Positions 187 to 16,585 of a DNA stretch of 16,585 nt are shown here, piece after piece (the stretch's first letter is position 1; every line of letters starts with the position of its first letter). Both the position numbers and the translations under genes were made by a program. The notes beneath the pieces are model-generated. The model saw only the letters and a program-made list of their open reading frames with translations. It made no database searches and was not told the origin of the DNA. Origin of the DNA: a virus; the IMG/VR virus record IMGVR_UViG_3300032038_003322; one strand, given 5' to 3'.

Positions 187-1014
187 ATGCCTAACAAACA
201 ATATCCCGCGCCGCTGTGGCGCGATGCAATCAATGGTTATCTGTCCTATCTGCGCGCGGCCGGTCAGCGGCCCGAGAGCGTGAAGACCCGATCACGGCAG
301 CTTGTGCGCCTGAGCCTCGATCTTGCCGGCACGGCCCCGGCCGATGTGACGGCGGCCGCGTTGCTGGAATGGTTCGAGTCGAAACAGTGGGCGCGCGAGA
401 CGCGCCGTAGCGCGCGCGACGCGGTGAACCTGTTCTATGAGTGGATGAAGCTCACGGGCCGCCGCTGCGATAATCCGGCGTGCGTCCTTCCGCGCGTGCG
501 GCGCACTTCGCCGTCGCCGCACCCGTGCCCCGACTCGGTGATACGCGCCGCCCTGCTGGATGCGAAGCCCGACGTGCGGCTGATGATACGCCTCGCTGCC
601 GAATGCGGCTTGAGGCGTAATGAGATCGCGCAGACGTCGGCGGCCGACGTGCTGGACGGCGGCGACGGCTATTCGCTTATCGTGCACGGCAAGGGCGGAA
701 AGCAGCGTATCGTGCCGATGCCCGACGATCTCGCGCGCGAGGTGATCGCCTATGACGGCCCGTGCTTCCGTGGCCGCTTCGGCGGCACGGTCGAAGCGTC
801 CTACGTCGGCAAGCGTGTCGGCGCGGCCTTGCCGAAGGGGTACAGCTGCCACTCGCTGCGCCATAGGTACGCGACGCGGTTGTACGCGGAAACGCGGGAC
901 ATCCTGCTTGTGTCGAAGATGCTGGGCCATACGAAGGTCGAGACGACTATGGCTTATGTCGCTTTGCCGTCCGTCGGATTGCAAGAGACGATGCGGGCGA
1001 TCTCCGTCGTGTGA
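187..1014 (+). CDS. int: Tyrosine recombinase / phage integrase (small XerC/D-like, 275 aa)
   Basis: C-terminal catalytic pattern: GLRRNEI (Arg), HGKGGKQR (Lys), HSLRHRYAT (His-x-x-Arg), LGHTKVETTMAYV (His and Tyr nucleophile). The N-terminal region is SAM-like (YLSYLRAAGQRPESVKTRSRQL). The gene sits beside the tRNA-like att fragment. Confidence 0.9.
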   Translation: MPNKQYPAPLWRDAINGYLSYLRAAGQRPESVKTRSRQLVRLSLDLAGTAPADVTAAALLEWFESKQWARETRRSARDAVNLFYEWMKLTGRRCDNPACVLPRVRRTSPSPHPCPDSVIRAALLDAKPDVRLMIRLAAECGLRRNEIAQTSAADVLDGGDGYSLIVHGKGGKQRIVPMPDDLAREVIAYDGPCFRGRFGGTVEASYVGKRVGAALPKGYSCHSLRHRYATRLYAETRDILLVSKMLGHTKVETTMAYVALPSVGLQETMRAISVV

Positions 1015-3075: not shown

Positions 3076-4476
3076 TTATTGTGCGTTCGTGGTAAGAAAG
3101 CTCGTCGTACGGCATAGATGCCCTATGGTCGCCTCGGCCGTGAGGTATGCCGCTGTCCACGCGGATGGTATCTGCGCCCATGTGGTCGTGGCGCTCAGTG
3201 GTGTGGAGATGGGCGTGAGCGTGATGTCGTGCCTGACGTGTATCCGTTCGTGTCTCGCGTCGATGCTGAGCGTGCCGCCGATCATCGCGTACGGGCCGAT
3301 CGCGTCGAACGGTAGCTTGGTGTCGGCGAACATGATCGCGGCCAACGGGCGCGGCTGCATGTATTTCGGCTGTAGGCTTTCTGGCATGTCGTCGGCGTCC
3401 AGGGTGATGCCGGACGGTGTGAGCCGTGTGGCGATGTTGTCGATCAATGTCTTTAACGCGGTTTCGTCCGCCGTGAACGGGCTCCATGTCGTATAGTCGA
3501 TGGGCGCGGACGCGCTATGCCCGTACAACAGATCACTGTCCACGACGAGGTTCTTCACGTTGTCCCGTATCTCCTGCGGCAGCGTGTCCGATTTCACGTT
3601 GACCTCGACATCGGACACGCTCGCCGTGAACTCGACCGTATCGTTTTGGTTCCTGCGGCCCTCGGTGCGCATCGTCTTGAACTTGACTGTGACGCCGGTG
3701 TACGGCGGCAACAGCTGGAACTCGCGTGCCGAACGCGCATAGGCCGCGTCGAGCGGCTTGTACGCCTTGCCTTCTGACATCACGTAGACGCACGCGGTGG
3801 CGCGGGCGTCGAGGCATACCAGTGCTCCCGCGCCGACACGCAGCGCGCGCAGCGAATTGTCGTCCGGATGCTCGTACCACAATGGCAGCGAATAGTCCAT
3901 GAACGAATCGTGCAGCAATGTGAGCTGGGACGGGTATTCGCCCTTGAGCTGCGGCATGATGCAGTTTCGACTGCTGATGCCGAACGGCATGTCGTCCACA
4001 ATCGTCGGCGCTCCGATTGCCGTCGCGCGGCGATTCATCTCGGCTACGCGATCCGCCGGCGTCACGTTCCAGTGGAGCAGACCCTTGATGTTATTCGATA
4101 GGTCGCTCGTCGGCCCCTCGTCCCTCAACCGCTTCCACAACACCATGAGCGAGGTCGCCGTACACTGGATCTGCCAGCCGTCGCGTAGCGGCTTTACGGT
4201 CAGGCCGGCGGCGATCAGGCCGTTGAACACAACGGTGTGGCCGGGGCCGAACCATAGACGCACGCCGCGTCCGGTGAGCCATGTAGGGTTCGCGGCGAGC
4301 TCTCCGCGCAGATCGCGCAGCGTGAAGGTCATGACGCTGGGATCCGGCTGGCGCCCGACCTCGCTCGTGCCCCATTGGACGCTCGCGCCGGCGAGGGCGC
4401 ATAGGTCTGCGTGGGACGTGAGGTCGCGCCATGCACCGTTGACGTTGATTTCCAGATGCGGAATCAGGTAGGTCAT
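3076..4476 (-). CDS. Tail-tip protein in the distal-tail/baseplate position (466 aa)
   Basis: ATG at 4476 overlaps the tape-measure stop (TGATG). Its position immediately after the TMP fits this role. The upstream 587 codons of track ORF 3076..6237 are an Arg-rich out-of-frame overlap with the TMP and are excluded. Confidence 0.5.
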   Translation of the reverse strand: MTYLIPHLEINVNGAWRDLTSHADLCALAGASVQWGTSEVGRQPDPSVMTFTLRDLRGELAANPTWLTGRGVRLWFGPGHTVVFNGLIAAGLTVKPLRDGWQIQCTATSLMVLWKRLRDEGPTSDLSNNIKGLLHWNVTPADRVAEMNRRATAIGAPTIVDDMPFGISSRNCIMPQLKGEYPSQLTLLHDSFMDYSLPLWYEHPDDNSLRALRVGAGALVCLDARATACVYVMSEGKAYKPLDAAYARSAREFQLLPPYTGVTVKFKTMRTEGRRNQNDTVEFTASVSDVEVNVKSDTLPQEIRDNVKNLVVDSDLLYGHSASAPIDYTTWSPFTADETALKTLIDNIATRLTPSGITLDADDMPESLQPKYMQPRPLAAIMFADTKLPFDAIGPYAMIGGTLSIDARHERIHVRHDITLTPISTPLSATTTWAQIPSAWTAAYLTAEATIGHLCRTTSFLTTNAQ

Positions 4477-7133
4477 CAGCACCTCCTTGCCGAGTAGTCG
4501 TCGAGGATGCGGCGCAGTTCGGCGGCCGTGCCTTCCTCGTCGAGGATCTTGCCGTTGATGTTGACGGTGATGTTCGGCCGGTCGTCCTTCGTGTGGCCGA
4601 CGCCGGTCATGCTCATGTTCAACGGCATGGCGGCGAGGCTCGCGTTCGCTTTGGACACGGCGGCGCGCACGTCCGAGTCGAAGCCCTTTGTCAGGCCGCG
4701 TGCGAGGCCCTGCATGATCAGCCGTCCGTTGTTGACGAGCAGGATCTTGTCGTAGGCGGGCGGTCCTTTGTGGGCGGCGATCCAGTCGCCGAGGCCGCCG
4801 ACCCATCCGGTCACGTTGCCCCACGCGGATTTGAGGCCGTCCCATAGGCCGTTGATGATGTTCGAGCCTGCGTTCCACAGCCATTGGCCGGCGTTCGCGA
4901 AGATGTTCATGATGCTCTGCGGCAGGTTCCCGAACCAGTTGAGCACGTTGCCCCACGCGGATTTGACGCCCTCGCCCGCGTTCGTGAAGATCGTGCGGAT
5001 GCCGTTGCCGAGCCCGTTGAACGCGTTTCTGACGCCGTTGCACAGGCCGTTGAAGAAGTTCTGCACGGCCTGCCATATGGCGCGCACGCCGTTCGCGCAG
5101 CCGTCCCACGCGCCCCGGACGATGCCGACGACGTTCTGGAACATGGTCGCGATGCGCTGCCCGGTGCGCTCGAAGAAGCCGCGCACGGCGTCCCATATGC
5201 CCTTGACGGCGTCGCCGGCGGCCGACCAGTCGCCGCGTATGACGGCGCACACGGCGTCGAAGATGCCACGGATGACCTCGACGACGGTGCCGATGTAGTC
5301 CTTGACGGTCTCCCAGATCATGCGCACGTATTCGCCGGCCACGTCCCATGCGGCCGTGATCGCGGTGCACACGACCTCGAACGCCGCCTTGAGGCCGTCG
5401 AGTATCGGCTGGATCCAGTCCATGAACGTCTGCCATGCGGCCGTCACCCACTGGCATACCGCATCCCATGCCGTCTTGATCGCGTCGCACACGACTTGGA
5501 ACACGCCGGCCACGGCGTTCCATGCGTCCGTGAGGAACTGCGTGAACGCCGCCCACGCGGCGCGGCCGGTCTCGGTCTGCGTGAAGAAGTAGGTCAGGCC
5601 GGCCACGAGCGCGCCGATGGCGGTCACGACCACCATGACGGGATTCGCATTCATGACCACATTGAAGGCGGCCTGGGCGAGTTCGGCGGCCTTCGTCGCG
5701 GCCGAGAACCCTTGTATCGCGCCGACTGCGGTCTGCACGAGGCCGGCGACCTTGAACGCGGCGAAGCCGCCGCCGATCGCGGCGAGCGAGGCCACGACCG
5801 CGTCGGCGTGTGCGCCGAACCAGTCGGCGACGCGGCCGAGCGCGTCGGCGGCACCTTGGATGATGCCGGTCACGGTCTGCCATGCGCCGCCGAGCGCGGC
5901 GCCCACGCCCTCGCCTCCGGCCATGCCTTGCCAGACGCGTCCGACCGTCGCGGCGATCCTGCCGCACATGTCCCACAGGCTGCGCCCGGCCGACACGATC
6001 GCGTCCCATGCGGCGCGCGTGGCCTGAGCGGCGCCGGTGTCGCGCAGGCCGGCGGCGACCTGGCGGATCCAGTCGGTGACGTGCTGGAGTTGCACGCGTG
6101 CGCCGCCCACGAGTTCGGTGACGGTGTTGAACATCTCGCCGAAGCGGCTGCCGGCGTCGGCGGCGCCGTTGAACATGCCGTCGATGGGCAGGACGGCGGT
6201 GATCAGGTCCCATATGGCCGTGCCGACCGCCTTGCACGCGGCGGCGACGTCGGCGAGCATGACGCGGCCGGTCTTGATCGCGCCCGAGTCGGCGAACGCG
6301 GTGGCGAACGCCTTCAGGTCGCCGGTCGCCTTCGCGCTGAAGTCGGCGATCGCGTCGCCGGCCGAGCTGATCGCTCCCGTGACCATCGGCTTGAAGATGT
6401 TGAACGCGTCGGACAGGCCGCCGACGATCGCGGCCTCGAGGTTGCCGATGGCGCCCTCCATCGTCGCGGTGGAGGCGGCGGCCTCCTTCGCGACGTCGCT
6501 CATGCCCAGCTGCATGATCGCGTCGTTGAACTCGGCCGCGGTGATCTGGCCCTTCGCCATCGCGTCCCTGAAATCACCCGTGTAGGCGCCGTTCCTCTTC
6601 AGCGCCTCCTGAAGCTTGCCGGATGCGCCGGGAATCGCGTCCGACAACTGGTTCCAGTTCTCCGTGGTCAATTTTCCGGCGCCGGCGGTCTGGGTCATGA
6701 CCATCGCCACGCTTTTGAAGGTCTCGGCGTTGCCGCCGGCGACGGCGTTGAGGTTGCCGGCCGCTTCGGTCAGGCCCAGATAGTCCTTGATGCCGTTGGC
6801 GGCCAGCTGCGCGGTCATGGACTGGATGTCGTCGAGGCCGTACACCGTCGTGTCCGCGTATTTGCGGGTCGCTTTCGCGGCACGGTCGATCGCGGACGTG
6901 TCGAGGCCCGCGAATTGGAGTGTGGACTTGAACTTGTCGGTGCTGTCCGACATCGTGACCACGTCGCGGCTGAAGCCCTTGACGGTGTCCCACACCTTGC
7001 CGATGCCCTTGGTCGCGAGGTTGCCGAGCACGGTGCCGAACGCCGCCGCCTTCGTCGCGGTCTTCTCGAACGCCTTCTGGGCGTCCGCCGCGTTGCCGGT
7101 GATGCGCACCGACATGATCGCGCTATGCGCCAT
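4476..7133 (-). CDS. Tail tape measure protein (885 aa)
   Basis: GAAGGAGG RBS. The N-terminal region (TVYGLDDIQSMTAQLAANGI..TAGAGKLTTENWNQLSDAIPGA) is typical of phage TMPs. A long Trp/Phe-periodic helical repeat region follows (AWDAV, IWDAV, AWGNV). The gene follows the G/GT chaperone pair. Confidence 0.92.
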   Translation of the reverse strand: MAHSAIMSVRITGNAADAQKAFEKTATKAAAFGTVLGNLATKGIGKVWDTVKGFSRDVVTMSDSTDKFKSTLQFAGLDTSAIDRAAKATRKYADTTVYGLDDIQSMTAQLAANGIKDYLGLTEAAGNLNAVAGGNAETFKSVAMVMTQTAGAGKLTTENWNQLSDAIPGASGKLQEALKRNGAYTGDFRDAMAKGQITAAEFNDAIMQLGMSDVAKEAAASTATMEGAIGNLEAAIVGGLSDAFNIFKPMVTGAISSAGDAIADFSAKATGDLKAFATAFADSGAIKTGRVMLADVAAACKAVGTAIWDLITAVLPIDGMFNGAADAGSRFGEMFNTVTELVGGARVQLQHVTDWIRQVAAGLRDTGAAQATRAAWDAIVSAGRSLWDMCGRIAATVGRVWQGMAGGEGVGAALGGAWQTVTGIIQGAADALGRVADWFGAHADAVVASLAAIGGGFAAFKVAGLVQTAVGAIQGFSAATKAAELAQAAFNVVMNANPVMVVVTAIGALVAGLTYFFTQTETGRAAWAAFTQFLTDAWNAVAGVFQVVCDAIKTAWDAVCQWVTAAWQTFMDWIQPILDGLKAAFEVVCTAITAAWDVAGEYVRMIWETVKDYIGTVVEVIRGIFDAVCAVIRGDWSAAGDAVKGIWDAVRGFFERTGQRIATMFQNVVGIVRGAWDGCANGVRAIWQAVQNFFNGLCNGVRNAFNGLGNGIRTIFTNAGEGVKSAWGNVLNWFGNLPQSIMNIFANAGQWLWNAGSNIINGLWDGLKSAWGNVTGWVGGLGDWIAAHKGPPAYDKILLVNNGRLIMQGLARGLTKGFDSDVRAAVSKANASLAAMPLNMSMTGVGHTKDDRPNITVNINGKILDEEGTAAELRRILDDYSARRC

Positions 7134-9097: not shown

Positions 9098-10162
9098 TCA
9101 CGCCGTCTTGAACTTGATGGGCAGCAGGCCGTCGGTGTTCGTCGCGCCCATCGCCATGTAGCCGTAAACGCTGTAGTTTTCGGTGAGTTTGGTCGGGTCG
9201 CCGTCGGACAGCTGTGTCGGGCCGCCCGACTCCCAGACGGTGACGGCTTCGGGGTCGATGAAGCAGGCGGTGCCGGCGGTCGCGCCCGGCAGGATGTAGA
9301 CGGGGACGCGCATGAGGTCGCCGACCACACCGGTCAGGTCAAAGCTGCCGATGGTGTCCGAGCCCTTGCCGCTGATGTCCATGAACCGGTTGCCCGAGTC
9401 CTTGAGCTTGATGAGGGCGAGGGCGACGTCCTTGGACACGGCGAGACGCGTCAGCGAGGTGTTGCGGTCGTCCATGATCTCGGCGGCGTCGAGGATGATG
9501 CCGGCCCATTCGTCCGGCGTCATGGACGCGAGCACGCTCTTGGTCGTGATGTTGTTCGCGTCCGAGGACGCGTCCCTCTGCGCGGCGATCAGGTCGTACA
9601 GATACGTACGGACCGCGCTTTCGGTCGCCTTCGCATACGCATTGCGCAGCGCCTTCAGGGCGGTGTTGAGCATCGGCGTCGTCGATCGTTCGATGACTTG
9701 ACGGCTCAGGGTCGTGTAGCCGCCGTAGGTGGCGATGTCGGCGCTCTTGGTGCCGAACTTCACCTTGCCGAACGTCAGGGCGCTGCCTTCGCTCGTCTGC
9801 TTATCGGCCGACGTGGTGTCGGACGATACCACGTTGTATTCGAGCGTCATGCCGGTCGCGGGAAGCGTGTCGCGGGTCAGGATGTTCATGACCTTGCGGC
9901 GCTGTTCGATCAGCTTGAGGTCGTCGGCGATCCATGTGACGGTGTTGCCCGTGTCGCCGGTGGCGATCAGGTCGCGCGTGGCGAGCATGAGGTCGCGTGC
10001 CTCCGTGTCGCCCTTGGCGAGGGCCTTGAGATAGTCGCCCTCGCTGCGGTACGCCTCGCCGATCTTCGCCGGCGCGGCCGGTTCGTGTTCGGCGAGAGCG
10101 GTCTTGATGGCGCGGATCTCGTCGTCGATCGCGGCCATGCGCGTCTCGGTGCCGTTGTCCAT
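9098..10162 (-). CDS. Candidate nested in-frame product: major capsid protein alone (354 aa) from the internal ATG
   Basis: A consensus AAGGAGG (10168..10174, minus strand) lies 5 nt upstream of the in-frame ATG at 10162, exactly at the protease/capsid domain boundary. Confidence 0.45.
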   Translation of the reverse strand: MDNGTETRMAAIDDEIRAIKTALAEHEPAAPAKIGEAYRSEGDYLKALAKGDTEARDLMLATRDLIATGDTGNTVTWIADDLKLIEQRRKVMNILTRDTLPATGMTLEYNVVSSDTTSADKQTSEGSALTFGKVKFGTKSADIATYGGYTTLSRQVIERSTTPMLNTALKALRNAYAKATESAVRTYLYDLIAAQRDASSDANNITTKSVLASMTPDEWAGIILDAAEIMDDRNTSLTRLAVSKDVALALIKLKDSGNRFMDISGKGSDTIGSFDLTGVVGDLMRVPVYILPGATAGTACFIDPEAVTVWESGGPTQLSDGDPTKLTENYSVYGYMAMGATNTDGLLPIKFKTA

Positions 10163-10672
10163 TGGTTCCTCCTTAGTGGTGGTGTTTTCGATGTCCCTCT
10201 GTCCGGTGATTTTCGCGTCCACATACGCCGGGATCCCGGTGACCGAGACCTCGAACAGTTCGACGCTGCGGCGGTGGACCACGGTGCGTTCGTCGAGTGT
10301 TTCGACATGGTTCTCGATCGGGCGGAAGCCAATCGAGAAGGCGTCGTAGACGCCGGCGCGCACGAGGTCGGCGACCTCGCGGCCCTGTGCGGTGTCGGCG
10401 ATGCTGGCCGTGATGTGCAGGCCGTCCGCCTCGCGTGTCTGCGCGGTGACGCGGCCGATCAGCGCGCCGTGCTCGCGTGCCAATTTCACGTCGCGGCCGC
10501 CGAAGTCGCAGTCGTCGTCGATGACCTCGACGGTGCCGGGCCATATCTCGAGTTCGCGGCCGAAGGGGACGGCGATGCCCTCGAGGGTGAGGCCGTCGTC
10601 GTCCTGCGCGTCGCGCAGCCGGACGCCGCCGACGTCGATGTGCCGTGTCTGCATCAGGTCATGCTCGTTCAT
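9098..10672 (-). CDS. Prohead protease (HK97/S78-like) fused in frame to an HK97-fold major capsid protein (524 aa)
   Basis: Residues 1-165 carry protease motifs (LEGIAVPFG, KLAREHG, AFSIGF, VSVTGIPAY). Residues 171-524 carry a coiled-coil delta-like segment (RMAAIDDEIRAIKTALAE) followed by a capsid-like body. One ORF with no internal stop, and an AAGGAG RBS. Confidence 0.88.
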   Translation of the reverse strand: MNEHDLMQTRHIDVGGVRLRDAQDDDGLTLEGIAVPFGRELEIWPGTVEVIDDDCDFGGRDVKLAREHGALIGRVTAQTREADGLHITASIADTAQGREVADLVRAGVYDAFSIGFRPIENHVETLDERTVVHRRSVELFEVSVTGIPAYVDAKITGQRDIENTTTKEEPMDNGTETRMAAIDDEIRAIKTALAEHEPAAPAKIGEAYRSEGDYLKALAKGDTEARDLMLATRDLIATGDTGNTVTWIADDLKLIEQRRKVMNILTRDTLPATGMTLEYNVVSSDTTSADKQTSEGSALTFGKVKFGTKSADIATYGGYTTLSRQVIERSTTPMLNTALKALRNAYAKATESAVRTYLYDLIAAQRDASSDANNITTKSVLASMTPDEWAGIILDAAEIMDDRNTSLTRLAVSKDVALALIKLKDSGNRFMDISGKGSDTIGSFDLTGVVGDLMRVPVYILPGATAGTACFIDPEAVTVWESGGPTQLSDGDPTKLTENYSVYGYMAMGATNTDGLLPIKFKTA

Positions 10673-11842: not shown

Positions 11843-13261
11843 TCAGAAAATCTGCAATTCGCCGCTCTCGGCGTGATTGACCGCCCATGCGGCGACCATG
11901 ACGGACTCGATCGGCGAGGTCAGTCCGGTCGAGCCGCGCCGGGTCACATGCCACGAGTCGCCGGACCAGCTGCGCGCGCAGTTCGCGGCGGAATCGTCGA
12001 GCCTCGCGTCCGCCGCGTGCAGCGTGACGCCGTTCTGTAACCCGCTGAGATACGACTGGCCGACGGCCATGTAGTCGGCCGAGGTCAACGGCACGAGCCG
12101 CACATCGTCGGTGCGTTCGAGCAGGTCGTGCAATGGAGCGTTCGGCCCGCGCGAGTCCATGCACACCGGCGCGTCGTAGGTGCGGGCGAGCCGGCGCAGT
12201 TCGGCGACGGCGTCGCCCGTGCCGTCGAGCACCTTCAGCACCTGCGTGCGCGTCACACCGTCGTCTCCGCGTATGGCCACGCTGATGCTCGTGTGCGTCG
12301 CGTCCACGTCCACCGCCATGCCGAACGCCTTCGGCGCGTTCCTGGCTGCGGTCGGCGGCATCGGCTCGCACACGGTCGCCTCCCACAGGTCGGCCGGAAT
12401 GAACCGTTCGGCGATGCCGGTGTCGCGCCTATTGCCGAACGCGCGGGCCCAGCCGGCCGTGTTCTGGCCGAACTGCGCGCGGAAATCGGCGAGCTGTGAC
12501 TTGTTCCATAGCAGGCCGGCGGCGGGATGGTACGCCATGATGACGTCGAGATCCTCGGGGTCGGCGTCGTCGGGGATCCCGAAATCGAACCAGCAGGTGC
12601 GCCGCGACGCCTCGCCGGCACGGCACGCATCCAGTCTCGAGTTGAAAAAGGTTGACTCCGCAGTGCCTTCGGTCGATGTGATCCACAGTTGGGGCTGGAC
12701 GCCGGTGGCCTTGAAGCGCGTCGCGGTCGTCGGCAGGAAGCCGTCGATGATCGCGTCGCCGGTGTCTGCTGACAGCGAGAACGCCTCGTCGAGCGTGATC
12801 ATGTCGCCCTGCACGCCGTGGCCGGCGACCTTCGTGACGCTCATGGGACGGAACACGCTGCCGTTGAGAAACGGCTGGCGCAGGTCGCCGGCGCCCAGAT
12901 ACGGCCGGCGGCATATCGCCTGAAGCTCGCTGTCCTGCAACGCGGCGAGATACTTCTTGAAGTGCTCGGACGCGTCCTTGCCGGTCTGCGCCAGATAGTA
13001 GACGTAGCGGCGTGGTCCCCACAGGGCGTTGCGCGTCGAGGCCGTGTCGATCAGCGTTGACTTGCCGCACTGCCGCTGCGTGCTCAGGATCACCGTGTCG
13101 TAGTAGTAGCTGCCCGTGTCCGGGTCGATCTCGCCGGCCACGTCGGCGACGTAGCGCTGCCACGGCAGCAGCGGCGTATGCAGGAACGCAGCGAACGCGG
13201 CCACGTTGCCGCCGTCCGTCCGCCTTGACGTGTCACGGCGCGTGCCGCCGCGCATCCTCAC
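11843..13261 (-). CDS. terL: Terminase large subunit (472 aa; GTG 13261 or ATG 13255)
   Basis: Walker A-like STQRQCGKST, a later ITLDEAF (Walker B-like), and a C-terminal nuclease-size domain. GTGA overlap with the terS stop. Confidence 0.88.
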   Translation of the reverse strand: MRMRGGTRRDTSRRTDGGNVAAFAAFLHTPLLPWQRYVADVAGEIDPDTGSYYYDTVILSTQRQCGKSTLIDTASTRNALWGPRRYVYYLAQTGKDASEHFKKYLAALQDSELQAICRRPYLGAGDLRQPFLNGSVFRPMSVTKVAGHGVQGDMITLDEAFSLSADTGDAIIDGFLPTTATRFKATGVQPQLWITSTEGTAESTFFNSRLDACRAGEASRRTCWFDFGIPDDADPEDLDVIMAYHPAAGLLWNKSQLADFRAQFGQNTAGWARAFGNRRDTGIAERFIPADLWEATVCEPMPPTAARNAPKAFGMAVDVDATHTSISVAIRGDDGVTRTQVLKVLDGTGDAVAELRRLARTYDAPVCMDSRGPNAPLHDLLERTDDVRLVPLTSADYMAVGQSYLSGLQNGVTLHAADARLDDSAANCARSWSGDSWHVTRRGSTGLTSPIESVMVAAWAVNHAESGELQIF

Positions 13262-13572
13262 TTGGCGGCCTCCGCTAGCAGGTGCGTCAGGTCGTCGCTG
13301 AGTTCCACCGTCTCCGGGTACAGCGCGCGCAGCTCGCGCATAGTCGCGTTGTAGCTGTCCATGAGCGTCGAGATGTTCTTCGGCGTGGGCGCGGAATTGT
13401 ATCGGTCGATGTTGTAGGCGATGCAGATCAACGAGGCGGCGTAATCCAACGCCTCTGGCGTCGGCTCATGCGTCTCGAAGAAGCGGTCGAGCATGTTCCG
13501 CGTGCTTTTTTCCTTGAACCCGTTGTACTTTCCGATTTCCTCGAATCCCTCGAAGACGCCTTGCGTTTCCAT
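13258..13572 (-). CDS. Putative terminase small subunit (104 aa)
   Basis: GGAGGTG RBS and a position directly upstream of, and coupled to, terL and downstream of HNH plus the AT-rich spacer. The protein is small and helical. The call is mainly positional. Confidence 0.5.
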   Translation of the reverse strand: METQGVFEGFEEIGKYNGFKEKSTRNMLDRFFETHEPTPEALDYAASLICIAYNIDRYNSAPTPKNISTLMDSYNATMRELRALYPETVELSDDLTHLLAEAAK

Positions 13573-13685
13573 GTCTCACCTCCGTTTCGCGACTTTTTTA
13601 TTCTTGGTCGAGAGTGCAAAAAACTGGGCGCGGGGTCTTGGTGGCCGGCAGCCGTTTAAAAAAACAGCCATCGGCAAGCATCCGC

Positions 13686-13713
13686 ATTATAGCGCGTCGC
13701 GTCCGATTGTCAA
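13686..13713 (-). promoter_or_regulatory. Consensus sigma70-type promoter TTGACA-N16-TATAAT facing terS
   Basis: The minus strand reads TTGACA (13713..13708), a 16-nt spacer, then TATAAT (13691..13686). This lies about 110 nt upstream of the terS ATG. Confidence 0.6.
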
Positions 13714-13745
13714 TGTGCTAAGCGTCGAGCACGGACACAATCGTC

Positions 13746-14480
13746 TCACCATGCGAGACTATCGGCGATGGTCTCATTACGCAGCCCGAGCCGCACGAGC
13801 TGACGGCGGCGCTGTGCGAGGCGGGCGCGCACCGTCGCCTGCGTCACGCCCATCGCGTACCACTGGCGAGCCACCTGCTCGTCCGTCGCATTGCCCACTG
13901 TATCGAACACTTGTGCGGATCCCGGATCCACGACATGGATGTCGTAGTCGAACGCGATCCACTCGGCGAGCATGTCGGGATGCGAGCGGCTGCGCGGCAG
14001 CGTGCGGATCAGCCACACGTCGAGCGGCGAGGCCGTGCGCGCCAGCTGCCGGTAGGCCGCGTCCCACGCCATCGCTGCGGCCAGACGCACCGGCTTCGCC
14101 GCGGCGAGCTCGTCGTCGTCGCATGAGAGCACGCGGGCGAACTCGCTATGGGCGACCATGACGCTGTCCAGCGCCATGCGCTCGGTCGCATAGCCTATCA
14201 GATCGGCCGTGGGCGGCCCGATGACGCAATGGATCGTCGCGCCGTACCCACTCAGCACGCGGTCCTGTCGCACGCTGTTGCAATGCTTGCACGCGCGGCG
14301 GATGTTCGCGACGCTGTCCATGCCACGATGCGACCACGGCACGATATGGTCGTCCTCCTCGCCGACGCCCGTGCAGCCCGGCAGCCGTAGCCAACACTCG
14401 TTGCCCCATGTGGCGATGACCTCTGCGCGGATACGCGGGTCGATGACCTGACGCCGACGCTTCCTGTTCATGCGCTTCAT
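13746..14480 (-). CDS. HNH endonuclease with an extra C-terminal domain of about 170 aa (244 aa)
   Basis: HNH core CWLRLPGC..DDHIVPWSHRG..SVANIRRACKHCNSVR. ATG at 14480 overlaps the upstream stop (ATGA). The track ORF start at 14678 is an out-of-frame overlap with the Xis-like gene. Confidence 0.85.
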   Translation of the reverse strand: MKRMNRKRRRQVIDPRIRAEVIATWGNECWLRLPGCTGVGEEDDHIVPWSHRGMDSVANIRRACKHCNSVRQDRVLSGYGATIHCVIGPPTADLIGYATERMALDSVMVAHSEFARVLSCDDDELAAAKPVRLAAAMAWDAAYRQLARTASPLDVWLIRTLPRSRSHPDMLAEWIAFDYDIHVVDPGSAQVFDTVGNATDEQVARQWYAMGVTQATVRARLAQRRRQLVRLGLRNETIADSLAW

Positions 14481-14671
14481 TCGTGCCGTCCCTTCCACTT
14501 GTCCTTGTACGCCTCGAGCGCGGACACCTCGTAGCGGTAGACGCTGTCCTCGTACTTGATCCAGTCCGGGCCGCGCCTGTCGTCGCGCCACCGGCGCATC
14601 GTCGCCTCGCTCACGCCCAAATACTTCGCGGCCGCCCTCGTCGTCAACGGCGGTACGTACCTGGCACCCAC
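14477..14671 (-). CDS. Excisionase-family HTH DNA-binding protein (64 aa)
   Basis: LTTRAAAKYLGVSEATMRRWRDDRRGP..IKYEDSVYRYEVSALEAY is the MerR/excisionase-type (HTH_17-like) pattern. GTG start 3 nt after the upstream stop. Confidence 0.7.
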   Translation of the reverse strand: MGARYVPPLTTRAAAKYLGVSEATMRRWRDDRRGPDWIKYEDSVYRYEVSALEAYKDKWKGRHE

Positions 14672-14674
14672 CGC

Positions 14675-15001
14675 TCAAGCCCCCGCGTACTCGCGCAGCC
14701 GCCCGAGCAGATCGTCGCGGTCGAACACACGACGCCCGTCGACACGCTGAGGCGCCGGGATGCGCCCGTCATGAATGAGCTTCTGCAAAGCGTTGTCGCC
14801 TGCCGACCTGTACGAGGCCGTCTCGTACAGCCGCAGCAGACGGATCACCATGTCACGCTCAACCGTGGCCGTCCCCGTCGTGTCATGCTCCAGCCGGTCG
14901 AGATTCACGCGCACCGTCCGCCGTATCTCCCGGTCGTACAGCTTCTTGCCCGACTTCCTTGTACTGCGCTTCGTTGGTTTGTAATCGACTGCATATCCCA
15001 T
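14675..15001 (-). CDS. DNA-binding protein with a C-terminal excisionase-type HTH (108 aa)
   Basis: GAGG RBS. The N-terminus is basic (KPTKRSTRKSGKK). The C-terminal ALQKLIHDGRIPAPQRVDGRRVFDRDDL resembles excisionase/AlpA-type HTH. Confidence 0.55.
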   Translation of the reverse strand: MGYAVDYKPTKRSTRKSGKKLYDREIRRTVRVNLDRLEHDTTGTATVERDMVIRLLRLYETASYRSAGDNALQKLIHDGRIPAPQRVDGRRVFDRDDLLGRLREYAGA

Positions 15002-15022
15002 GACGACCTCGATTCTGATTGA

Positions 15023-15060
15023 TGTGGATAAGTGGATAAGTGGACAACTATTGTGGAAAA
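15023..15060 (-). repeat. Four head-to-tail DnaA-box-like 9-mers / iterons
   Basis: The minus strand reads TTTTCCACA (15060..15052), TTGTCCACT (15047..15039), TTATCCACT (15039..15031) and TTATCCACA (15031..15023). The last three have an 8-bp period. Confidence 0.8.
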
Positions 15061-15450
15061 GGTGACTTCGGTGGAGGGGGTTAGAGCGGGGGGAACCTTA
15101 AGAGGCCCAAACCCGAACCGAGCAAATCTCGATCGGGAAAGAGTCTCTTGAAGGTTCGCAAGCTAGGTGGCTTCGTCTGGAGCCGGGCCGTCGCATATCG
15201 TACGAAGCGGGCCGAAGCCCGCGCGGTTGGTCTCACGACGACGCCCGCCCGTAGACGGCGAAGCGGCTGACACGCCCTTACCCGCGCGCCGCCGTGATTC
15301 AGCACAAGCCCGCATAAGCCCTCCCCGAGAGCCGTCGTAACCACGCCACCACATGACGTGTGTTTGTAACGCGCTGAGCGAGGCGCGCCCGGATAATCTC
15401 ATACGTGCCGGCGCGGGCAGCCGAGGGGAACCCGCGCCATAGGCATGCAA

Positions 15451-15651
15451 TTATGAAACTTGGGCGTTACCTGCATCGCCACGCCTGCGAACACGCCCCA
15501 CACACCGGGCATCGTTCGCCGACGCGACGAGCGCCTGCAACAGCTTGTCGTCGAGGATGGCACGCGTCTCACAATCACCGGACGACATACAGAGCCTGTA
15601 GAAGCCCGGCCAATGCTCGATCGGTTCCACCCACGCACGCGTCTCATTCAC
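15451..15651 (-). CDS. Hypothetical protein (66 aa, GTG start)
   Basis: This frame has strong G/C at third codon positions and a protein-like sequence (NETRAWVEPIEHWPGFYRLC..ILDDKLLQALVASANDA). The start overlaps the upstream stop. Confidence 0.4.
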   Translation of the reverse strand: MNETRAWVEPIEHWPGFYRLCMSSGDCETRAILDDKLLQALVASANDARCVGRVRRRGDAGNAQVS

Positions 15652-15943
15652 GGCGCACCTCCGTATCGAACACGTGGATGAACTCGGCGATGGTCGGGCG
15701 GCGACGCGCGCCGAAATCGTCGAAGAACCTGTACGCAACGATGAACACGTCGCTGTCCTCATGCGTCTCGTACAGGGGAATGTAGTCGCTGACTTCCAGC
15801 TGCGCGCGCGGGCGTCGTCCGTGGCCGGTAATGAGCGCGTGCACGATCAGGCACAGTCGCGGCTTCATGTCGCTCGGATGCGCGAACACGGCCACATCGC
15901 CGCCGCGCAGATCGTCGAGTGAACAAATCAGCTTGTATTTCAT
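15644..15943 (-). CDS. Hypothetical protein (99 aa)
   Basis: GAGGAGG RBS. The ATG overlaps the Cro-like stop (ATGA at 15940..15943). High GC3. I recognise no motif. Confidence 0.6.
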   Translation of the reverse strand: MKYKLICSLDDLRGGDVAVFAHPSDMKPRLCLIVHALITGHGRRPRAQLEVSDYIPLYETHEDSDVFIVAYRFFDDFGARRRPTIAEFIHVFDTEVRRE

Positions 15944-16164
15944 CTCGCGGCCTCCTCGTCGCGCCCTAAGAGGTAATCCACGCTCACATCGAAGATGTCG
16001 GCAATGCTGCACACGTCCCTGAGCGTGAAACGATCATTCTTGAACTTCTGAGTGACTGCCGACGGCGTAATGCTCAGCTCTCGCGCAAGATCGGCGCGAT
16101 GGAAGCGGTTACGCCGCATAAGCGAGTCAATCCGCTTTGCTGTAGTCATAGTCTCTGTAGTCAC
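15940..16164 (-). CDS. XRE-family HTH regulator, Cro-like, first gene of the minus-strand operon (74 aa from GTG 16164; 69 aa if ATG 16149)
   Basis: RADLARELSITPSAVTQKFKNDR..TLRDVCSIADIFDVSVDYLLG is a classic HTH_3 fold signature. The GTG lies 7 nt after a -10-like box, suggesting a leaderless transcript. Confidence 0.8.
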   Translation of the reverse strand: MTTETMTTAKRIDSLMRRNRFHRADLARELSITPSAVTQKFKNDRFTLRDVCSIADIFDVSVDYLLGRDEEAAR

Positions 16165-16170
16165 GCTAAA

Positions 16171-16200
16171 ACCATAGCACAGACTGTAGTATGCCTACAA
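16171..16200 (-). promoter_or_regulatory. Candidate leftward (lytic) promoter
   Basis: The minus strand reads TTGTAG (16200..16195), an 18-nt spacer, then TGc-TATGGT (16179..16171). The GTG at 16164 sits at the expected transcription start. Confidence 0.45.
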
Positions 16201-16234
16201 CTACCATACTGACGTGTGATGTGTAGTATGCCTA
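16185..16234 (+). repeat. Two perfect 13-bp direct repeats TGTAGTATGCCTA (16185..16197 and 16222..16234); candidate operators
   Basis: Each copy overlaps the -35/spacer of one of the two divergent promoters. Extra TGTAGT hexamers lie at 16141 and 16156, and an inverted ACTACA at 16260. Confidence 0.6.
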
Positions 16235-16249
16235 AACTTGTGATATAGT
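16221..16249 (+). promoter_or_regulatory. Candidate rightward (lysogenic) promoter
   Basis: GTGTAG (16221..16226), a 17-nt spacer, then TGa-TATAGT (16241..16249). The ATG at 16257 lies 8 nt past the -10 box, suggesting a leaderless transcript. Confidence 0.45.
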
Positions 16250-16256
16250 GTTAAGC

Positions 16257-16502
16257 ATGACTACATACAATGAAAGCATTGAAAACATTGGCCTCACGCT
16301 TCAGCAGATCATTAGCGATAACATGCTTCTCGCTCTCGCTGCGCGACGCCTCAACCGCGCGCAACTCGCTGCGGGTATCGGCGTGTCGGGCGGTCTGATT
16401 TCCCAGAAACTCAATGGCCGGACGAACTGGACTATCGAGGATATGGAAAAAGCGGGTTCGATACCTAGGTATCGAACCCGCTTGGTTCCTGCGCGCCCAT
16501 AA
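16257..16502 (+). CDS. XRE-family HTH regulator, CI-like (81 aa; the track ORF starts at GTG 16248)
   Basis: RLNRAQLAAGIGVSGGLISQKLNGRTNWTIEDMEKA is an HTH_3 signature. The gene is divergent from the Cro-like gene and on the same strand as int across the junction. Its C-terminal tail is encoded by the palindrome and the terminal repeat. Confidence 0.78.
   Translation: MTTYNESIENIGLTLQQIISDNMLLALAARRLNRAQLAAGIGVSGGLISQKLNGRTNWTIEDMEKAGSIPRYRTRLVPARP
16451..16482. repeat. 32-bp perfect palindrome AGCGGGTTCGATACCT/AGGTATCGAACCCGCT
   Basis: The second half is the exact reverse complement of the first, with no spacer. It lies inside the 3' end of the CI-like ORF and spans the inner edge of the terminal repeat. 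Confidence 0.9.
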
Positions 16503-16585
16503 TGTCATGGGTGAGCCGGTGGGGCCTGTGGGGCTTGAACCCACGACCGGCGGATTATTACCATATGTGACTTCGTTATCGTTCT
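16459..16585. repeat. Terminal exact direct repeat, copy 2 (identical to 1..127)
   Basis: Same comparison as copy 1. The CI-like ORF 16257..16502 runs from unique sequence into this repeat. Confidence 0.97.
16518..16558 (-). other. Second copy of the tRNA 3' half fragment, inside terminal repeat copy 2
   Basis: Identical to 60..100 because it lies in the 127-bp repeat. Confidence 0.7.

Follow-up and report, generated by a model that had tools for sequence, protein, structure and literature searches.

DnaA, the host initiator of replication, can also act on transcription: the asnC terminator and the autoregulation of dnaA stand as precedents for its blocking of transcription (PMC10950094, citing Schaefer and Messer), and DnaA-dependent attenuation at 'rDnaA boxes' has been proposed for the his leader (PMC10989985). 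In such roadblock or attenuator systems the boxes, uniformly oriented, are themselves transcribed and precede the genes under control, and the locus described here resembles them in this layout. It consists of four DnaA-box-like 9-mers on the minus strand of a viral DNA of 16,585 nucleotides (IMG/VR record IMGVR_UViG_3300032038_003322; 'the window' below means this whole stretch), directly upstream of a gene for a 108-aa protein. Whereas the described systems have single or paired chromosomal boxes, the family to which the window belongs carries 1-5+ copies that are phage-borne and stand directly after a large structured RNA. The 9-mers probably represent genuine sites for the host's initiator, and binding of the array by DnaA is moderately favoured on the evidence of sequence. 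The reading ranked first, with a probability of about 0.30, is that the array may act as a DnaA-dependent gate between this RNA and an operon made up of the 108-aa gene, a helix-turn-helix (HTH) gene and an HNH gene (108aa-HTH-HNH); an origin-related docking site is ranked second, as a possibility to be held tentatively.

The boxes and the Shine-Dalgarno (SD) sequence of the gene that follows are, from the distal box toward the gene:

15052..15060, minus strand: box 1, TTTTCCACA (plus strand TGTGGAAAA), distal, 4 nt apart from box 2
15039..15047, minus strand: box 2, TTGTCCACT (plus strand AGTGGACAA), its last T common to box 3
15031..15039, minus strand: box 3, TTATCCACT (plus strand AGTGGATAA)
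15023..15031, minus strand: box 4, TTATCCACA (plus strand TGTGGATAA), the exact consensus, starting at -30 from the ATG
15007..15010, minus strand: SD sequence GAGG of the 108-aa gene

All four boxes share one orientation within 38 bp (15023-15060), one of them matching the consensus TTATCCACA at 9/9 positions and the other three being one-mismatch variants of it; three abut with an 8-bp period, reported by TRF as GTGGATAA x2.6 at 100% identity. An earlier note on this DNA had described four same-orientation 9-mers upstream of the 108-aa gene, the last of them an exact E. coli-type consensus. They are present as claimed, box 4 being that consensus, and the array is non-random: at least three boxes of the form T[TCA][ATG]TCCAC per 60 nt on the same strand arose in 0/1000 dinucleotide shuffles, and at least two in 10/1000. 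No further copy of GTGGAYAA occurs in the window, and the array is the sole DnaA-box cluster of the genome. At a GC content of 0.38 the box site is the third most AT-rich 60-nt segment of the genome; the earlier statement that no part of the early region is more AT-rich is incorrect, since the cI/cro intergenic region stands at 0.32 against 0.38. The start codon had been placed correctly at 15001, whereas the distance from it had been put at 22 nt and is 21 nt, measured from the end of the last box to the ATG (15001-14999).

The box types predicted at oriC of B. longum are TTATCCACA, TTGTCCACA, TTTTCCACA and TTACCCACA, with TTTTCCACA as type C (PMC2430713), and the same four variants, occurring in the window and its relatives, match them. 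The abutting pair TTATCCACTTATCCAC is an arrangement found in ori2 (oriS) of the F plasmid (NC_002483.1), where an abutting, 8-bp-phased, same-orientation pair TTATCCAC-TTATCCAC(N) likewise sits on a mobile element, one that depends on host DnaA. The objection that the array is too tight for DnaA thus fails, because F ori2 has the identical abutting 8-bp pair. The surroundings of the two pairs differ: F ori2 reads ggggTTATCCACTTATCCACgggg, its pair being followed by GGGG, an AT-rich unwinding region of ~45 bp, four RepE iterons and repE, whereas in the window a coding region begins 21 nt after the pair, a G+C-rich structured RNA comes before it, and there are no iterons and no Rep-like initiator. 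Further, the exact 17-mer TTATCCACTTATCCACA occurs in ~35 viral-contig stretches without the core motif of the RNA; in at least 12 of those it stands among further DnaA boxes, and several adjoin AT-rich DNA.

Conservation was assessed at 55 related loci (L001 and so on being their labels), retrieved without reference to the boxes, and in 50 distinct spacers; the boxes of each locus were counted between the same two landmarks. The earlier note had looked to conservation in relatives as a check: position and orientation are kept in 31/55 loci, which carry 1-5 TTATCCAC(A) boxes at the equivalent spot, and boxes are absent in 24/55. Box orientation is identical across the 50 distinct spacers, with zero reversed boxes, and the TCCAC core together with the single orientation is kept in 34 of them. 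In the window clade, the L021, L023/L036 and L027 clades and L055 the spacers are otherwise unalignable and the boxes stand out as islands of identity; the clades in which they persist beside unalignable flanks number at least five. A start at -30, shared by most box-positive clades, is seen in the window, L001, L005, L021, L023, L035 and L043; a distance of 7-12 nt separates the last box from the SD sequence in independent clades with differing intervening sequence; an SD-like purine run is found at the equivalent place in all relatives; and the distal box 1 has a homologue in relatives.

Box copy number varies. The closest relative, L013, has two abutting units and the window one extra 8-bp unit (box 2); near-identical phages differ by a copy (1 vs 2 in the L043/L036 pair); the L021 clade ranges from three to at least five boxes, up to six counting decayed copies; L037, L043 and L054 have a single box; and decayed copies, for example TTACCCAC, TTAACCGC and TCACCTAC, persist in several clades. 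Differences between near-identical phages, the extra unit relative to L013 and the decayed copies are all features expected of a slippage-prone ancestral repeat that is tolerated in the spacer and has no specific function. Neutral sequence of this kind would hardly persist as identity islands in spacers that cannot otherwise be aligned, or keep its core and one orientation in 34/50 of them, and such an explanation is very improbable.

Relatives that lack the boxes have other elements at the same junction. In L011, L017, L018, L020, L033 and L039 the spacer before the 108-aa homologue holds direct repeats or hairpins particular to the clade; the repeats are CATCGAACA x2, TCAATC(A/G) x4 and ACAGACCRACTC x1-2, and copy number varies here too. 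Two recurrent extra 'boxes' proved to be coding coincidences, namely TGATCCACA at +2300, which encodes LWIT in the terminase, and CGTGGATAA, ~265 nt upstream of the RNA core motif, which encodes CVDNY in an upstream open reading frame (ORF).

Given the genes that follow the array, a phage protein has to be considered as its binder. These genes are:

14675..15001, minus strand: 108-aa gene, its product having a disordered basic N-terminal tail and a winged-helix domain
14477..14671, minus strand: 64-aa HTH_17 (MerR/excisionase-type) gene (PF12728, E 5.8e-9; phrog_66)
13746..14480, minus strand: HNH endonuclease gene, last gene of the box-headed unit (PF01844, E 3.9e-7; phrog_333)

Direct repeats arranged head to tail just before two HTH genes could be iterons or operators, bound by the 108-aa winged-helix protein, by the 64-aa HTH_17 protein or by some other early protein; the likeness to DnaA boxes would then be incidental. 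Excisionase/Cox-type winged-helix proteins typically bind direct repeats, and the different direct repeats that other clades have at this place (CATCGAACA x2, TCAATC x4, ACAGACCRACTC x2) resemble specificity swapping. The 108-aa protein itself has a weak HTH_17 match (E 8e-4), a model from AlphaFold 2 (AF2) with a predicted local distance difference test (pLDDT) score of 78.5, generic and weak winged-helix matches only in a PDB profile search and Foldseek, and nine homologues at 44-97% identity. The earlier note had named it as a possible iteron-binding protein, yet box presence co-varies with neither adjacent HTH protein. When all ORFs from -2.6 to +1.5 kb were clustered across the 55 loci, no ORF cluster was specific to box-positive loci. 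The 64-aa protein is near-identical in L021, with four boxes, and in L063/L064, with decayed copies only, and box-positive loci carry at least five different, unrelated-looking 64-aa types. Likewise, the 108-aa protein of L055 is highly divergent and the boxes are still present there, while those of L021 (boxes) and L012 (none) are closely similar, ~3/4 identical by eye, and have in common the putative recognition helix GDHxMQQLISxG. In addition, the window's genome holds no second copy of the motif, for example near attP, and the cI/cro intergenic direct repeats TGTAGTATGCCTAMAACT (TGTAGTATGCCTA(C/A)AACT) at 16185-16203 and 16222-16240, likely the CI/Cro operators, have a motif that differs from the boxes. 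Because box presence does not track the types of the adjacent HTH proteins, the sequences suggest, more simply, that a conserved protein of the host is the binder, and a phage-protein site is unlikely.

Upstream of the array lies the most conserved non-coding element of the family. The 'non-coding' gap of ~450 nt there encodes a large structured RNA, which the earlier note had missed; the gap is conserved more than the flanking proteins:

15068..15429, minus strand: structured RNA core, ~360 nt (22-member alignment, RNAalifold, column-to-coordinate map)
to about 15457, minus strand: further conserved 5' motif GATAAY..GAAUA

In 22 diverse relatives the RNAalifold consensus has 60 pairs, 32 of them with compensatory changes. 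Paired cells amount to 92.9%, against 42-47% when the partners are slid by 1-3 columns, and the covariation score is 0.405 against 0.07-0.10 for the slid alignments; the observed values were reached in 0/500 shuffles. Frequent G-U pairs are compatible with the gene-sense strand alone. Among the elements of the fold are invariant single-stranded blocks (GCGCGUUACAAACACAC for one), loops of the UUCG and GNRA types, a GGGG loop that pairs with a downstream CCCC, and a long 3' hairpin. The RNA is found in >70 Bifidobacterium phage or prophage loci; Rfam 15 gives nothing at E<=1 in 13400-16585 except a 3' fragment of transfer-messenger RNA (tmRNA) at the contig end and chance-level matches only at E<=10 in 14980-15480, and no published description of it was found in the literature. 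It is a new family of large structured RNAs of small Bifidobacterium phages. Two candidate features of it were rejected: the 3'-domain hairpin with its U-run is no intrinsic terminator, since the U-run pairs with an upstream purine run to give one long stem, and the boxes do not pair with the conserved UGUGG hairpin loop, since L021 has boxes without the loop and L011 and L033 have the loop without boxes.

Between the closing of the fold and box 1 there are 8 nt. The array thus occupies a short linker, unpaired and poor in G, that joins the RNA to the ribosome-binding site. The array is unpaired in the centroid fold, and the linker has 6% G in the window and 8% G with 32% C across the box-positive spacers, as against 22% G, and hairpins, in the box-negative ones. 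These properties would also suit an element acting at the RNA level, in which the repeats serve as a single-stranded linker in the transcript, as a ribosome standby site or enhancer, as the place where Rho loads or as the target of an RNA-binding protein (the proposed 'rDnaA box' among such targets), the likeness to DnaA boxes being coincidental in most of these roles. Such an element is compatible with transcription of the array, as the covariation-defined boundary of the RNA indicates, with its strict single orientation and strand asymmetry, with its anchoring 7-12 nt from the SD sequence and with the C/A-rich repeat ACCCCACA x2 that cluster EE phages have at the equivalent place, and binding of DnaA to leader RNA boxes has been proposed (PMC10989985). 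The 9/9 consensus, the host's box variants and the F ori2 arrangement are, conversely, very unlikely to have come together by chance; the box-negative spacers are rich enough in G and hairpins that an unstructured linker is therefore no family-wide requirement; and the complementary UGUGG loop does not co-occur with the boxes. An action purely through RNA is consequently improbable, though less so than a neutral repeat.

On the minus strand the order is a cro-like gene, two small ORFs, the ~360-nt RNA, 8 nt, the boxes, 11 nt, the SD sequence, and the 108-aa, 64-aa HTH and HNH genes, with no promoter-like site between the RNA and the 108-aa ATG. The covariation suggests that the boxes lie within the early transcription unit, upstream of 108aa-HTH-HNH. 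The structural genes that come next have a promoter of their own:

13686..13713, minus strand: sigma-70-type promoter TTGACA-16-TATAAT, 12/12 consensus, before the 104-aa, terminase and structural genes

It is conserved in the window clade despite changes of its spacer and sits in the 173-nt gap between the HNH and 104-aa genes; given this promoter (13713-13686), the box-headed unit is therefore only 108aa-HTH-HNH. The same 173-nt gap, with its T-runs, is the location expected of cos in an HNH-type packaging module.

With this arrangement, DnaA bound to a one-orientation array could be a roadblock or attenuator for RNA polymerase coming from the RNA. On an array occupied by DnaA, transcripts would stop just past the folded RNA and 108aa-HTH-HNH would be silent; once DnaA runs short or is titrated away, for example by phage copies that accumulate with 3-4 boxes each, read-through would allow these genes to be expressed. 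The strength of such a gate would be set by box copy number, which could be altered easily through slippage of 8-nt and 13-nt units. A role tied to transcription is supported by the uniform orientation, the fixed distance to the SD sequence, the position within the transcript and the replacement elements in box-negative relatives. DnaA binding, transcription across the array and the gating itself are what we infer from these features.

Several considerations weigh against a gate. On phages and plasmids DnaA boxes belong, classically, to origins, we know of no phage in which DnaA serves as a transcriptional gate, and the absence of a replication gene leaves an origin function to be accounted for. 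The function of the boxes is dispensable or replaceable, because 24 of the 55 relatives manage without them, having no box here and no other cluster elsewhere in the DNA examined. Furthermore, and as a caution for DnaA models of any kind, E. coli DnaA in vivo favours box pairs 2-3 bp apart (PMC11317965), and the spacings common at this locus are a 4-bp gap or a 1-bp overlap.

The principal competitor is an origin-related site, at which the boxes would recruit DnaA and then DnaB so as to start or assist replication, with the RNA serving for transcriptional activation or as a primer, much as in ColE1/pBR322. In pBR322 a dispensable DnaA box downstream of the RNA II primer gives a helicase-loading route, and ColE1/pBR322 resembles the window in having a long structured RNA, a DnaA box just past its 3' end and a replicon without an initiator protein; if the boxes of the window were an accessory loading site of this kind, their absence from some relatives would be tolerable. 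Pfam and PHROG scans of all sizeable ORFs recognised no replication gene in the 16.5-kb genome, consistent with the earlier note's description of it as lacking replication genes, an absence of matches being no proof. The array is, moreover, the genome's only DnaA-box cluster, in its third most AT-rich 60-nt segment; its abutting pair is a component of F ori2 and occurs in AT-rich DnaA-box clusters of other viral contigs; the RNA, as the family's most conserved non-coding element, suits an essential cis-acting function; and a winged-helix gene stands immediately downstream, as rep genes do beside origins.

Several features expected of a self-sufficient origin are missing. Neither an AT-rich unwinding element nor DnaA-trios (TAG/CTA-type trinucleotide repeats) were found flanking the array, the AT-rich tract being ~55 bp at 38% GC and consisting mostly of the boxes, with an ORF 21 nt downstream and the G+C-rich RNA upstream. 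The universal conservation expected of an indispensable origin is not seen, in view of the box-negative relatives, the single-box loci and the varying copy number of near-identical phages, and cluster EE phages of like architecture have no box cluster. Cumulative GC skew has its turning points near 13,300 and 16,500, not at 15,040. Nothing at this locus points to the antisense regulator, the processing by RNase H or the G-rich hybrid segment of ColE1/pBR322; toward its 3' end the RNA is rich in C, which would be unfavourable to a persistent RNA-DNA hybrid, and the orientation of the boxes relative to the RNA is presumably opposite to that in pBR322. Taken as a whole, the earlier note's interpretation is supported as to the DnaA boxes, which are probably genuine (oriC types, conserved islands, F ori2 pair), and is not supported as to a self-sufficient phage origin, given the want of an unwinding element, the position of the boxes in a transcription unit and their absence from 24/55 relatives and, as a cluster, from cluster EE. 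The boxes have the look of an accessory element, either a DnaA-dependent gate or a docking site, rather than of a classical origin, and DnaA control of the downstream operon, which the note had offered as an alternative, is at least as likely as an origin. The origin-related role is possible and tentative.

A further variant, in which the RNA and boxes together form a protein-free origin, RNA-primed or transcription-activated, with the RNA as the invariant element, is doubtful and less probable than an effect at the RNA level. If true, it would mean that ~16-17 kb actinophages replicate with host RNA polymerase, DnaA and replisome only; to our knowledge a ColE1-like strategy has not been described for tailed phages. 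Either DnaA as a replication-coupled transcriptional gate or RNA plus DnaA boxes as a protein-free origin would, if true, be new for phages.

The window as a whole is one strand-coherent small siphovirus, as seen from frame analysis of third-position GC (GC3) and the Pfam and PHROG scans. Its first and last 127 bp are an exact direct repeat (1-127 = 16459-16585), and it is therefore a circularly closed contig with a genome of 16,458 bp. Besides the features already listed, it carries:

187-1014, plus strand: integrase (frame analysis, Pfam/PHROG)
after the integrase, minus strand: holin, endolysin and tail genes (Pfam/PHROG, frame analysis)
4476-7133, minus strand: tape measure
between the tape measure and the capsid-protease fusion, minus strand: major tail protein
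9098-10672, minus strand: capsid-protease fusion
between the capsid-protease fusion and the large terminase, minus strand: portal
11843-13261, minus strand: large terminase
between the large terminase and the HNH gene, minus strand: 104-aa gene
between the 108-aa gene and the Cro-like gene, minus strand: the ~450-nt gap, then two small ORFs
15940-16164, minus strand: Cro-like XRE gene
16248-16502, plus strand: CI-like XRE gene, divergent

The phage is a temperate siphovirus of Bifidobacterium and kin to the Microbacterium cluster EE phages. The core motif of the RNA occurs in prophages of B. biavatii, B. cebidarum, B. callitrichidarum and B. saguini, which identifies the hosts as Bifidobacterium, and also in 44 IMG/VR contigs, mostly of 16-18 kb. 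INPHARED nucleotide and protein searches with the locus and the 108-aa protein gave no matches; the link to cluster EE comes from the capsid-protease fusion alone (32% identity), by which these 17.4-kb phages are the nearest cultured relatives.

Cluster EE (Orlajensenviridae) resembles the window in its size of ~17 kb, in that fusion and in the order of a long non-coding region, a gene for ~110-130 aa, a small HTH gene, HNH, cos and terminase. Its phages are lytic, unlike the temperate window phage, and the DnaA-box cluster is absent in them (for example in BurtonThePup). Their non-coding region of 500-700 nt has short motifs in common with the RNA, namely CGATAACCGAATA, GGCTCC and GTTCCC..CACC (L125-L130), and ends in the C/A-rich repeat ACCCCACA x2 before the SD sequence of the ~127-aa gene. 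On synteny and these short motifs, cluster EE phages may carry a counterpart of the RNA; when their region was aligned to the RNA and five EE sequences were folded, there was too little variation to prove homology or structure. We know of no recognisable replication or late-regulation proteins in actinophages of 14-18 kb (clusters EE, AN and CW, RRH1, Bl-1-like bifidoprophages). The description of cluster EE mentions neither replication functions nor the non-coding region (PMC7302621). Small bifidoprophages of such size are known and little studied, and Bl-1, 689b-1 and Bb423phi2, at ~18 kb, are comparable to the window in their small genomes and have no replication genes described (PMC6109161). 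For the replication and timing of these small actinophages the locus gives two handles: an array of host-initiator sites with variable copy number, and a covarying RNA absent from Rfam.

Some observations concern other parts of these genomes. Gene 23 of BurtonThePup is longer than its annotation, the 127-aa form starting from an in-frame GTG at 16386. In the window, cumulative GC skew goes up across the whole late region and down across the early region, despite the same transcribed strand. At 16517-16585 on the minus strand, and again at 58-126, a T-arm/acceptor-like segment weakly matches tmRNA at its 3' end (E 0.038); to judge from its sequence, it is probably the core of an attP through which the phage would integrate into a tmRNA or tRNA gene. 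The identical ends together with this match were considered as prophage attL/attR, which was rejected, identical ends indicating a circular contig and the tmRNA-like piece being attP-like. This segment adjoins the CI-like gene at its 3' end, an arrangement like that of integration-dependent immunity systems, and a perfect 34-bp palindrome, AAGCGGGTTCGATACCT/AGGTATCGAACCCGCTT, lies at 16450-16483, inside the 3' end of the CI-like gene and just before the attP-like segment. Finally, a hairpin with a 20-bp stem at 1025-1068, the genome's second most AT-rich spot, lies between the convergent integrase and holin genes and is likely a bidirectional terminator.

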